Shown here in pieces: positions 40,301-46,300 of a stretch of DNA of 64,000 nucleotides. The position numbers were made by a program. Positions within the stretch are counted from its first letter, which is position 1; every line of letters begins with the position of its first letter. Origin of the DNA: Escherichia coli (GTDB taxonomy: Bacteria; Pseudomonadota; Gammaproteobacteria; Enterobacterales; Enterobacteriaceae); the NCBI RefSeq assembly GCF_002854065.1, contig NZ_CP024147.1; one strand, 5' to 3'.

Positions 40301-43300
40301 CTTGCCCCACCTGCGGATTTTGTTCCGTCTGGGCGGCTACAGCTGGCTCAGCATTGATCAGTGGTTGCGTTGCTGGCGTCGCCTGCGTCATGAAAGAGGG
40401 GAACGCACTCATCCCCATAGCCACTGCACAAATCCAGAATAGTTTTCTTTTCATCGCGTTATCATCATTGTTGAGCCAAAGCCTGATCCGATGGTTGTGC
40501 CGTTTCGCTCCGCTCCGGGCGGCGCGGAATAAACGATACAACCCAGGAAACCAGAGAAGTCAGCACACGGAATATGCCCTTCACCGAAGAAGGCGCAAAC
40601 TCCGCCAGATGGCGGTAGCCACGGAAGCCGAGCTTCAGAATATCCAGCAGACTTTCCAGCGGCTTATCTTCCGGATAGCTGTCCTGCCAGAGCGCCCATG
40701 TATCCGCACGGGCAAACGTACACTGCACAAAATCGATATGTTGCTGGGTGGTGAGCGGCATTAATTTCAGCCCAACTTCATTACCCATCACGCGCGCCAC
40801 CTGGGTCGGGAAGACGTATTCCTGCTGACCGCGTTTAAGCAACAGATTCACTTTCTGCCCTTCCAGAATCTGCGCCTGACCGTTGATCTTGATCCCCAAA
40901 CCACCGTCGGAGAAATCCTGAACGGTACACGAAAAGAGGTGACCATCTTCGCGGGCAATTGCCGCGGGCATCGTCATCTCCACGCGGTGCGATCGGCGTA
41001 CCTGTTTGCTTTCTACCGATACTGCAACTGCGCCGCCAAGAACAATCAGGTTGTAGAATACCCACACCATACTGACGACCACGGTGAGCATCTCGGTTGG
41101 CGGGCCATAGAAGTAGCGCCAGATGCCTACCGCAACGCCCACCAGGTTGAGCAGGACAAGGAAGATGTAGGGCCGCGAGATCACCCAGTCGACGTACTCT
41201 TCTTCCACCAGTCCACCTTTGGCGGTGACGTTAAATTTGCCTTTGTGCGGGTTAATCAGCGCCACCAGCGTCGGTGGTGCGATATACCACGCCAGCACCG
41301 TTTCGTAGATTTCACTCCAGAAAGAGTGGCGATATTTGCCCTGGATCTTGGAGTTGGTCAGGCTGGCATGGATCATATGCGGCAGCACGAATAGGGCGAT
41401 CATCAACGCTGGCGCATAGATGATGTAGGCATGAAGCAGCAGGAACGCCAGCGGCGCAGTCAGGAAGATCAGCCGTGGAATGCCCGACAAGAAGTGGAAC
41501 ATGGCGTTGACGTAGCACAGCCGCTGAGCAAACTTCAGCCCTTTACCGGTGAGCGGGTTATCGAGACGGAAGATTTGCACCATCCCGCGCGCCCAGCGAA
41601 TACGCTGACCGATATGCGCCGACAGACTTTCGGTCGCCAGCCCCGCCGCCTGCGGAATACGCATATACGCGGAGGTATAGCCACGACGGTGCAAACGCAG
41701 AGAAGTATGCGCATCCTCAGTCACGGTTTCGACAGCAATGCCGCCAATTTCATCCAGCGGCTTACGGCGAATCACCGCACAGGAACCGCAGAAGAAAGTG
41801 GCGTCCCACATATCGTTGCCATCCTGCACCAGACCATAGAACAGCGTGCCTTCGTTCGGTGTTTTACGAAAACGCCCCAGGTTGCGTTCAAACGGGTCCG
41901 GTGAGAAGAAGTGGTGCGGCGTCTGCATCATCGCCAGTTGTTTTTCTTTCAGGAACCAGCCCATGGTCATTTGCAGGAATGAACATGTGGGGACATGGTC
42001 GCAGTCGAAAATCGACACGAACTCGCCCTTGGCATATTTCAGCGCATTGTTGATGTTGCCCGCTTTCGCATGTTCATGAGTGGTGCGGGCGATATATTTA
42101 ACCCCCACGTTTTGCGCAAACTGGCGAAACTCTTCCCTGCCGCCGTCATCAAGGATCCAGATGTTCAGCTTATCTTTCGGCCAGTCGATACCCAGCGAGG
42201 CGTAAATGGTATTTTTCACCACGTTGAGATCTTCGTTGTAAGTCGGGACAAAGATATCCACCGACGGCCACAGCGACATATCTTTCGGCAGTGGTACTGG
42301 CTGACGATTCAGCGGCCATACCACCTGGAAGTAGCCGAGCACCAGCACAATCCACGCGTAAGTTTCAGCGAACAGCAGAATAAGCCCGCACACCAGGCTG
42401 ACCGGATCGTCCCAGTTCAGCGTAGAGGTGTAACGCCACCAGATATAACGGCAAGAAACGGTCAGCGACAGCACAATCAACATTAGCGCCGAAAAGCGCC
42501 CCGGCATCCGCCGTACGATCAGCGCTACCCCCCACAGCAGCATCAGGAAGATAAACTGCGCCAGCGGGTTAAACGGCTGAGTAACGCAGATTAACGCCAG
42601 AATCAGCGAGAAGGTGACGATGATACCGAGGATCAACCGCCGCGCCCCGGCACTCAAATGACCGAGCTCTTTTTTCTCATCAAGATGCTGTGTTTTATGG
42701 CTAACGCGCTCAGGCAGCTCGTTCATCCATTGATGGTAACGTCCACGAATATTCTGCAGACCTGAAAATGCCCGCCTGCGCGGTTTCGGCGTTTCTTTGC
42801 GCGATGCACCGATCAGTAACCAGCATGTTTGAATGAGATAACGGACCGGGTCCAGCGGACGCGGACGCGAGGCGTTGATATGCGGATACAGGTTTTTATG
42901 TTCTGCGCGAATACGCTGCCAGCGCGGGTGCTCCAGCGGAATAAAAATCCAGGCCAGGATCATCCAGAAACAGCCGAGCGTCGCGCTGAAAGCCGACGCA
43001 CCGTGACGACGATAATCGCGATAACGCCCGATAAGCCGCGCGTTGACCGGCGGGATAAGCAACCACCGGGTCAGGATACTCATGATGCACTCCCGACTGG
43101 CGTTTTCAGCCCGGAATAGTTCAACAGGCACCAGTTCGCCAGCGTCAATATCTCTTCAGCCGCCAGCGCATCACTGCGATATTCACCTACTGGTTGCTTA
43201 GCCGCCAGGCATTCAGCCATCGCTTCATCACGATGAATGAGCATCGGCAGTAATCGGCGCTGGCTTTGCAACCAAAGCTGGTAAATATCGTCCTGAACCT

Positions 43301-46300
43301 GACTGCCAATACGGAAGTCATTAATCAAAATATGTGCGCCATCCGGCAGCGCTTGCTGATGCAGTCGGATATGGCAGTTGGCATCCACATTGACGATTGC
43401 CAGCGAGTGATCGCACAAACTCAGCAGCTGGTGGGTTATCTGCGAGGCATCACGCGGTAAGTCGATTAAAATCCACTGGTAACGCCCGCTGGATTTTAGT
43501 TGCTGTAAGCCGGAGCAAATATCGCTCAGCCGGGTTTGCCAGTGCTGTGGATTTTCTTGTTCTTCAATGGATAACTGACCAAAAGGTAGCAAATCGAGCT
43601 GCGAGGTGTAGCGCAACCCAGCGTCACGCCAGTCCTAGCCATCCAGCATCGCTCTGGCCCAGCCCTGACGGTGGGTAAAATCAACATTAAATGACAGGCG
43701 CAACAAGTTGTCCGGGCAGGCATCGACCACCAGGACATTTTCTCCCAACATTTGTAATGACCAGGCTAATGCGGCGGTGATGGTTGTTGTCCCCACGCCT
43801 CCCCGCACCCCCTGCAATCCCAGTACGGCCATTCACCAATCCCCTACTTTTGTTGCGCAAACTCTGCCAGCAACGGCCAGCGTTTTAATGCCGCGGCCAA
43901 CTGTTCACGTTGGGAAATATCGGCATAATCAATATCAGGCAGTGAAAATGCCTGCTTTAACGCCAAAATATCATTCTGGAAGATATAGCCTATCGCGGGA
44001 TCAGGCAGAGTATCTGGTTCATTGTTATTCATTTTGCTTGATCCCTATGAAATAACCGTACCGTTCATGAGACAATTCTAACCGTGAGCATTTCGCCGGT
44101 TGATTGTTTACGGCGAGACGGGAATTTGCTCACTTTTTGACTTTCCGTTACGCAACAGAAAAAGTTAAAAACGAAAAGACTAAAATCACATGTCTTGTGA
44201 CCTGCTAAATTGATTCACATGCTAAATCTGATAAGTTTTAATTTCAATGGTAGGTTTATTTCTTAGCTTTCGCTAGTAAACTGATAATCAGACAAAATGG
44301 TGACATGAGGGACATTGTGGACCCTGTATTCTCTATCGGTATCTCATCATTATGGGATGAGCTGCGACATATGCCAGCAGGCGGCGTCTGGTGGTTTAAC
44401 GTCGATCGCCATGAAGATGCTATCAGTCTGGCGAATCAAACAATTGCATCCCAGGCTGAAACCGCACACGTCGCGGTCATTAGCATGGACAGCGATCCGG
44501 CGAAAATCTTTCAATTAGATGATTCTCAAGGGCCGGAAAAAATAAAATTATTTTCAATGCTAAATCATGAAAAAGGTCTATACTATTTGGCCCGTGATTT
44601 GCAGTGTTCTATTGATCCCCATAATTACCTTTTTATTCTTGTTTGCGCAAATAACGCATGGCAAAACATTCCTGCCGAGCGGCTGCGCTCATGGTTGGAT
44701 AAAATGAATAAATGGAGCAGGTTAAACCATTGTTCGCTTTTGGTAATTAATCCCGGAAATAATAACGATATACAATTTTCATTGTTGCTTGAGGAATACC
44801 GTTCACTTTTTGGTCTTGCCAGTTTGCGTTTTCAGGGCGACCAACATTTGCTGGATATTGCCTTCTGGTGCAACGAAAAAGGGGTCAGCGCCCGTCAGCA
44901 GCTTAGCGTTCAGCAACAAAATGGTATCTGGACATTAGTTCAAAGCGAAGAGGCGGAGATCCAACCACGCAGCGACGAAAAACGCATTCTGAGTAATGTT
45001 GCTGTACTGGAAGGTGCGCCGCCGCTATCGGAACACTGGCAACTGTTCAACAATAACGAAGTCCTGTTCAATGAAGCCCGTACCGCTCAGGCGGCGACGG
45101 TGGTCTTTTCTTTACAGCAAAATGCGCAAATCGAGCCACTGGCCCGCAGCATTCATACTCTGCGTCGCCAGCGCGGTAGTGCGATGAAAATCCTCGTACG
45201 GGAAAATACCGCTAGCCTGCGCGCCACCGATGAACGTTTGTTATTGGCCTGCGGTGCAAATATGGTTATCCCGTGGAATGCGCCACTCTCCCGCTGTCTG
45301 ACGATGATCGAAAGCGTGCAAGGGCAGAAGTTTAGTCGCTATGTGCCGGAAGATATCACTACCTTGCTGTCAATGACCCAGCCGCTCAAACTGCGTGGTT
45401 TCCAGAAGTGGGATGTGTTCTGTAATGCCGTCAACAACATGATGAATAACCCTCTTTTGCCTGCCCACGGTAAAGGTGTTCTGGTTGCCCTACGTCCGGT
45501 ACCGGGTATCCGCGTTGAGCAAGCCCTGACGCTATGTCGCCCTAACCGTACCGGCGATATCATGACCATTGGCGGTAATCGGCTGGTGCTGTTTCTCTCA
45601 TTCTGTCGGATTAACGATCTGGATACCGCGTTGAATCATATTTTCCCATTGCCTACTGGCGACATTTTCTCAAACCGTATGGTCTGGTTTGAAGATGATC
45701 AAATCAGTGCCGAGCTGGTGCAGATGCGCCTGCTTGCCCCAGAACAATGGGGCATGCCGCTGCCTTTAACACAAAGTTCTAAACCGGTCATCAATGCCGA
45801 GCACGATGGTCGCCACTGGCGACGAATACCAGAACCCATGCGACTGTTAGATGATGCTGTGGAGCGCTCATCATGATGACCATCAGCGATATCATTGAAA
45901 TTATTGTCGTTTGCGCACTGATATTTTTCCCGCTGGGCTATCTGGCGCGGCACTCTTTGCGACGCATTCGCGACACCTTACGTTTGTTCTTTGCTAAACC
46001 TCGTTATGTTAAACCGGCTGGGACGTTACGCCGCACGGAAAAAGCCAGGGCAACCAAAAAATGACTCAATTTACGCAAAATACCGCCATGCCTTCTTCCC
46101 TCTGGCAATACTGGCGCGGCCTTTCCGGCTGGAACTTCTATTTTCTGGTTAAGTTCGGCCTGTTGTGGGCGGGATATCTTAACTTCCATCCGCTCCTCAA
46201 TTTGGTGTTTGCCGCGTTTCTGCTGATGCCCATTCCGCGCTACAGCCTGCATCGCTTGCGCCACTGGATTGCCCTGCCGATCGGCTTTGCTTTGTTCTGG

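Follow-up and report, generated by a model that had tools for sequence, protein, structure and literature searches.

An amber codon in bcsQ and its origin

We analysed bcsQ, a gene of the cellulose (bcs) cluster of Escherichia coli, in a stretch of 64,000 nucleotides from contig NZ_CP024147.1 (assembly GCF_002854065.1), which is called the window below and whose features are listed in Table 1. On the minus strand the bcsQ frame opens with the ATG at 43832 (MAVLGLQGVRGGVGTTT...) and proceeds to ...ARAMLDG, directly after which it meets an amber codon; from there on it stays open up to ...LKTPVGSAS and the TGA at 43082-43080. This TAG, at codon 66, is the only internal stop. Translation of the minus strand was in full agreement with the original prediction, made from the window alone, of a single in-frame amber followed by the normal C-terminus in the same frame. 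The gene differs by one mismatch (99.9% identity) from the intact bcsQ genes of two related genomes, CUWW06 and 100416, so that its recognition is based on homology and not on a chance pattern of open reading frames (ORFs).

Table 1. Features of the bcs cluster in the window (positions are those of the window).
Feature	Position	Strand	Remarks
bcsQ, with one nonsense codon	43080..43832	-	250 codons plus stop; from translation
Amber TAG, codon 66, ancestral CAG (Gln)	43635..43637	-	From translation and the relatives CUWW06, 100416 and GCA_016683395.1
Former Dcm site, CTAGG in the window, CCAGG in relatives	43634..43638	-	Mutated base 43637 is the inner C
Residual N-terminal ORF, 65 aa	43635..43832	-	Deviant Walker A motif kept
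Residual C-terminal ORF, TTG start, 178 aa	43080..43616	-	Without P-loop; function not expected
bcsA, intact, 872 aa	40465..43083	-	ATG (43083-43081) overlaps the bcsQ TGA as ATGA
bcsR, intact, 62 aa, first gene of the operon	43844..44032	-	
bcsB, intact	38115-40454	-	
bcsZ, intact	37002-38108	-	
bcsC, intact	33547-37020	-	
bcsE, bcsF and bcsG, divergent, all intact	44305..47740	+	

When codon 66 is restored, residues 1-250 match the BcsQ structures 6YBU and 6YAR (E ~1e-167), which corresponds to full-length homology to the BcsQ family (Pfam PF06564), the SIMIBI-type nucleoside triphosphatases of E. coli-type cellulose secretion. The gene also occupies the expected position in a bcsRQABZC operon divergent from bcsEFG, with gene order and lengths as in the CUWW06 annotation. 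The frame through D150, N152, R156 and N171 is interrupted by the stop at codon 66 and, as judged from its sequence, the bcsQ of the window is a pseudogene of the BcsQ family. In other genomes with the same nonsense allele, hereafter Q66*, PF06564 matches both ORF fragments and the 178-aa C-terminal fragment has also been called by gene callers, while the exact 65-aa product is present in at least 11,721 blocks of a public protein-coding index. The rest of the cluster is undamaged: bcsR, bcsA, bcsB, bcsZ, bcsC, bcsE, bcsF and bcsG have the lengths of the CUWW06 RefSeq annotation and contain no internal stops, in accordance with the earlier description of these genes as full length, and the predicted overlap of the bcsA ATG with the bcsQ stop was found as well.

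The ancestral state of codon 66 could be read from the closest relatives. The window aligns to CUWW06 without gaps over positions 16000-64000, with 13 single-nucleotide polymorphisms (SNPs) in 48,001 bases, and the plus-strand G of CUWW06 at 43637 corresponds to CAG (Gln) on the coding strand. CAG is also present in 100416, from which the window-specific differences over 5,990 shared bases are Q66* and bcsA R367C only, and in the draft genome GCA_016683395.1, which was found by an exact BcsA look-up, differs by 2 SNPs over 7.6 kb and shares C367. Since all three closest relatives have CAG, the TAG of the window arose on its own lineage through one C>T transition, as had been surmised when CAG was named as the normal codon. 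A second genome of the window haplotype with TAG was not found by look-ups of the exact BcsA protein or of the exact 65-aa product, and on the assemblies compared Q66* is, on this haplotype, derived and so far a singleton. Set against the clonally expanded cellulose-loss lineages that have been described (PMC10881479), the window has a bcs loss-of-function mutation, but this mutation is not common to its clade, CUWW06, 100416 and GCA_016683395.1 all having CAG.

A nonsense codon in bcsQ is best known from K-12, in which it lies at codon 6 (TTG>TAG; PMC5944007, PMC5014196). The K-12 gene, which has been repaired in AR3110, resembles that of the window in having a premature amber in an otherwise complete bcs locus. 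It differs in the codon concerned (6 and not 66), in the type of change (a T>A transversion) and in that the K-12 lesion lies outside Dcm sites. The window has an intact TTG at codon 6, as had been noted, and the K-12 lesion is not present there. The claim of an independent inactivation at a different site therefore holds with respect to K-12, but the allele is neither new nor unusual for the species, as it occurs in 315 of 5,426 complete genomes.

The most prominent of these other carriers is O157:H7. In strain TW14359 (ECSP_RS23500), the same CAG>TAG change gives the same 65-aa product in an otherwise intact bcs cluster; this bcsQ shows five other differences from that of the window, two of them within 13 nt of the TAG, and is of independent origin. 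The O157:H7 allele is moreover widespread (about 295 complete genomes with its flank), whereas that of the window is a singleton with intact nearest relatives. It appears very improbable that the window inherited its TAG, or acquired it by recombination, from an O157:H7-like or another Q66* donor. Next to the near-identical relatives, O157:H7 and O55:H7 have the bcs region most similar to that of the window (99.0-99.2% over 15 kb), and a donor with the same TAG would be available in O157:H7. However, two mismatches between O157:H7 and the window flank the mutated base, one 13 nt upstream (coding position 182) and one 11 nt downstream (coding position 206), which would demand a conversion tract of less than 24 bp. 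No other carrier comes closer to the window than 36 SNPs in 4,960 bp, the nearest Q66* haplotype lying at this very distance, as compared with 1 SNP for the CAG-bearing CUWW06. In addition, the bcsQ of O55:H7 CB9615 is intact (CAG), which dates the O157 amber to the time after these two lineages had parted.

Recurrence of the amber at a Dcm site

The wild-type context of codon 66, GGC-CAG-G, contains the Dcm motif CCAGG; the window reads GGCTAGG where its relatives read GGCCAGG, i.e. the C>T change occurred at the inner cytosine of an ancestral CCWGG site. Deamination of 5-methylcytosine in CCWGG leaves a T:G mismatch in CTWGG, which is the substrate of the very-short-patch repair by Vsr, and such sites are mutational hotspots (PMC2715241). 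Among the 104 possible nonsense SNPs of bcsQ, only two, Q66>TAG and W24>TAG, fall on a Dcm 5-methylcytosine position. The recurrence of the Q66 TAG is attributed to the location of the mutated base in this CCAGG; the original prediction had recognised the lesion itself but had overlooked the Dcm site that explains why it recurs.

The amber hotspots of lacI are classical Dcm 5-methylcytosine-to-T sites, and methylation-induced hypermutation in natural bacterial populations is reportedly the subject of a work by Cherry from 2018 (cited in PMC10710837). The change in the window shares with the classical hotspots the replacement of C by T at the inner cytosine of CCWGG, a resulting CTAGG and an in-frame TAG. 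Those hotspots were defined in a laboratory reporter gene and as a genome-wide statistical effect, whereas bcs offers an ecologically relevant loss allele and the knock-out spectrum of a whole locus.

The distribution of bcsQ nonsense alleles was surveyed in the 5,426 complete E. coli genomes using 41-mer probes centred on the mutant base, so that each 28-base megablast seed included it. A 41-mer designed on a single background recovered 20 carriers only and missed the O157:H7-type allele, two flanking SNPs having broken the seed; it was replaced by probes on several backgrounds. The multiplex probe, which comprised all 118 possible bcsQ nonsense SNPs on nine backgrounds with K-12 codon 6 excluded, showed that 839 of the genomes (15%) have a bcsQ nonsense SNP other than the L6* of K-12. 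Q66 TAG accounted for 315 genomes, about 295 with O157:H7-type flanks and 20 on other backgrounds. Exact counts were 8 genomes for Q178 TAG and 7 for W24 TAG, the latter on at least five haplotypes; among the matches listed there were at least 15 for W234 TAG, at least 6 for Q119 TAG and at least 5 for Q86 TAG, and about 290 genomes with W68 TGA and about 100 with W120 TGA were estimated from a spread sample of 60 rows. The figures for W68, W120 and the rare sites being sample estimates, the formal Dcm test rests on the table of sequence type 95 (ST95) described below.

Q66* was found repeatedly on unrelated backgrounds. Within 20 nt of the mutation, the TAG was seen in four distinct flanking contexts. 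The non-O157 carriers that were fetched fell into nine bcs haplotype groups by their distances over 12.1 kb, with an uncertain placement of 1297KP, in which a frameshift inflates the distances. Six Q66* backgrounds, including the window, were at least 50 SNPs apart over the same 12.1 kb, and O157:H7 comes in addition to these. In 15 of the 15 carrier loci fetched (14 non-O157 loci and O157:H7 TW14359), bcsQ is recorded by RefSeq as an internal-stop pseudogene, and the ST95 table lists BcsQ Q66* at two separate places of the tree (PMC10881479). Hence the allele is already known, since it is common, annotated and published, and the window represents another independent occurrence of it. The strain of the window itself does not resemble ST95, being about 90 SNPs per 5 kb away from the ST95 genome SF-173; what it shares with ST95 is Q66*, which stands there within a documented series of repeated cellulose losses.

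To look at the excess of Dcm sites over other C:G targets of the same class, the nonsense mutations in the full ST95 table of 613 strains (Supplementary Data 1 of PMC10881479) were classed against the Dcm sites computed on SF-173. The six genes of the table (bcsG, bcsE, bcsQ, bcsA, bcsB and bcsC) allow 1,324 possible nonsense SNPs, of which 470 are transitions, 20 of these lying on a Dcm 5-methylcytosine. Dcm cytosines accounted for 8 of the 13 distinct bcs nonsense mutations and for 11 of the 16 events, with two events each for BcsQ Q66*, BcsQ Q178* and BcsB Q42* and one each for BcsA Q253*, BcsA Q581*, BcsG W247*, BcsE Q215* and BcsC Q513*. The non-Dcm class consisted of BcsA W55*, BcsA W674*, BcsA Y213*, BcsG W517* and BcsB Q57* (five distinct mutations, five events). 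When targets hit and unhit were compared (8 and 12 at Dcm sites, 4 and 446 elsewhere), Fisher's test gave an odds ratio of 74 with P=1.0e-9, and the binomial P was 1.1e-8. BcsQ Q66*, BcsQ Q178* and BcsB Q42*, the three nonsense mutations seen more than once in ST95, are all at Dcm sites. Furthermore, BcsE Q215* and BcsC Q513*, both of the Dcm class, arose in strains in which bcsA was already frameshifted, so that selection for cellulose loss is not needed to explain them.

The ST95 pattern has been ascribed to convergent selection and clonal expansion (PMC10881479). Applied to the window, such an explanation would make Q66* an ordinary replication-error transition at a site that is not hypermutable, recurring through positive selection for cellulose loss. 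Of 76 common sequence types, 74 have indeed been reported to contain cellulose-disrupting mutations, and all (100%) of the ST11 genomes sampled (phylogroup E) were affected, together with an association with blood isolates and increased virulence after cellulose loss (PMC10881479), and many loss alleles are frameshifts or nonsense mutations outside Dcm sites (W68 TGA and W120 TGA in hundreds of genomes; L6* of K-12). Nevertheless, selection for loss of function would be indifferent to the target hit, yet 8 of the 12 ST95 nonsense mutations that are transitions lie on 20 Dcm targets out of 470, Dcm-site ambers also appeared in strains already bcsA-null, and the allele of the window has not spread at all. 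We regard this alternative as unlikely; selection probably explains the spread of alleles (O157:H7 and ST95 clades) and not the choice of sites.

A natural experiment is provided by Q178. A synonymous AGT/AGC polymorphism of codon 177 (window 43299-43301) decides whether Q178 is part of a Dcm site: AGC, found in B2-type alleles, creates the site, and AGT, found in the window and in O157, leaves Q178 without the hotspot. Q178* was present in 6 genomes on the AGC background (1,109 wild-type) vs 2 on AGT (3,478 wild-type) and was 9.4-fold commoner per genome on AGC (P=0.004), with the reservation that genomes are not independent events. The expectation that Q178* would occur on AGC backgrounds exclusively had to be dropped, as two AGT genomes carry it. 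The Q178 pattern supports the Dcm model, although not exclusively.

Because the change falls exactly on a methylated motif, we also considered that the T might be an isolated assembly or base-calling error, in which case bcsQ would really be intact. Long-read basecallers are error-prone at Dcm-methylated CCWGG sites. The TAG of the window is also a singleton, the closest relatives, including the assembly 2 SNPs away, having CAG, and no other public contig of its haplotype with TAG was found. However, 133 of the 134 CCWGG sites in positions 16000-64000 are the same as in CUWW06, the codon 66 site being the sole difference, so that there is no systematic methylation-linked miscalling over these 48 kb, and the allele is real elsewhere (O157:H7 TW14359, about 295 other genomes with O157 flanks and the ST95 clusters), which makes its true presence in the window nothing remarkable. 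An error is on these grounds quite unlikely. A warning to annotators and assemblers follows all the same, in that CAG and TGG codons embedded in CCWGG accumulate true ambers as well as base-call errors linked to methylation.

Taken together, these results suggest that a recent single C>T struck the inner cytosine of the bcsQ CCAGG, whereby CAG (Gln66) became TAG; the likeliest chemical route is that 5-methylcytosine was deaminated to thymine and missed by very-short-patch repair. That such a Dcm-hotspot transition has occurred, with loss of BcsQ and an expected cellulose-negative strain, is to our mind probable. Several points weigh against this interpretation. First, dcm and vsr lie outside the 64-kb window, and we infer Dcm activity, methylation of the codon 66 site in this strain and deamination rather than a replication error. 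Second, C>T at CAG also occurs without Dcm, as in the two AGT genomes with Q178*, and 5 of the 13 distinct nonsense mutations of ST95 lie outside Dcm sites. Third, the ST95 events were counted by tree-order adjacency in place of a formal reconstruction of ancestral states, a count on which the test of distinct mutations does not depend. Fourth, the TAG is known from one assembly, no second assembly of the haplotype with TAG having been found. Finally, the cellulose-negative phenotype is predicted, and the sole published calcofluor comparison found is with EDL933, a strain that also lacks curli.

The novel part is the Dcm explanation; Dcm sites account for most bcs nonsense knock-outs in ST95. 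Neither Dcm nor deamination nor methylation is mentioned in PMC10881479, and no literature linking Dcm to bcs loss was found. More generally, we consider it fairly likely that most of the recurrent "convergent" bcs nonsense knock-outs (Q66* of O157:H7; Q66*, Q178* and Q42* of ST95) are products of Dcm 5-methylcytosine hotspots. If this is true, the recurring sites would owe no less to the supply of mutations than to selection for cellulose loss, and the map of hotspots would depend on the haplotype, with synonymous SNPs such as AGT/AGC at codon 177 making or breaking Dcm-site ambers. Recurrent identical loss-of-function mutations are usually taken as evidence of selection; the recurring sites here are methylated cytosines prone to C>T, and claims of convergence at bcs need to be corrected for Dcm context, as probably do those made from nonsense alleles at other loci of E. 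coli.

Expected effects on BcsQ, cellulose and bcsA

Cellulose secretion has an absolute requirement for BcsQ and BcsR, and D150, N152, R156 and N171 of BcsQ are residues of the ATP sandwich (PMC7840130). In the window, translation would end after 65 of 250 residues; the Walker A loop would be kept and the four residues of the ATP-sandwich dimer would be lost, so no functional BcsQ, and hence a cellulose-negative strain, would be expected. The loss of BcsQ and of cellulose in this strain is likely on this basis, as predicted from sequence.

A lowered expression of bcsA may contribute. Polarity on bcsA is possible. As regards a Rho-dependent effect, the stretch of 551 nt that would be left untranslated (C 25.4%, G 26.9%; best C/G ratio in 80 nt 1.47) has no clear C-rich, G-poor signature. 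At a spacing of 6 nt from its ATG, bcsA is preceded by a Shine-Dalgarno sequence of its own (GGGAG, 43090-43094). Cellulose production returns in K-12 once the bcsQ TAG has been replaced by a sense codon (PMC5944007, PMC5014196), and published work has left undecided whether the defect is due to loss of BcsQ or to polarity. The O157:H7 strain EDL933, a presumed carrier of Q66*, is calcofluor-negative, but it is also devoid of curli.

The locus could still be functional if the amber were read through by a suppressor tRNA or by leaky termination. Wild isolates seldom carry amber suppressors. A search of the 64-kb window for suppressor tRNAs found none, its only tRNA being tRNA-Pro(cgg), and in K-12 a bcsQ TAG that can be repaired is the very cause of cellulose-negativity. 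No point in its favour came up, and readthrough is most improbable. The bcsQ of this genome should be annotated as a pseudogene, and absence of phosphoethanolamine (pEtN)-cellulose is predicted despite a bcs cluster that looks complete.

Other variation in and around the cluster

Besides Q66*, the cluster of the window is distinguished by bcsA R367C (CGT>TGT, SNP at 41985), which sets it apart from CUWW06, 100416 and nine other haplotypes. This substitution was considered as a strain-specific second lesion and rejected: at least 23 public contigs encode the exact BcsA protein of the window, a distant haplotype with intact bcsQ being among them, and bcsQ is intact in all three of the places compared. 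R367C is a standing polymorphism.

Over the region aligned to CUWW06, nine coding SNPs were found, of which six are nonsynonymous (yhjG A642P, pdeH H90Q, kdgK A213V, bcsC T564I, bcsA R367C and ldrD A16T), one is nonsense and two are synonymous; which of the two strains is derived is known for bcsA and bcsQ only.

Additional damage to the cluster was seen among several of the bcsQ-amber genomes 1297KP, B-JRPT-4119, NCTC9100 and GmM062, in the form of a bcsC frameshift, bcsB frameshifts and an IS1 in bcsE, and looks like decay after a first hit. In 100416, in which bcsQ is intact, an IS1 lies between bcsE and bcsR.

Two tandem ldr-type units of type I toxins are located between bcsG and yhjV (window 47743-48632), with coding sequences at 47827-47934 and 48310-48417; other strains have one to four copies at the same position. 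Further away, as judged from the gapless match to the annotated CUWW06, an IS1 (about 63230-63927) splits lpfB of the long polar fimbriae operon (lpfB region about 63115-63927), of which a small piece remains at about 63115-63189.

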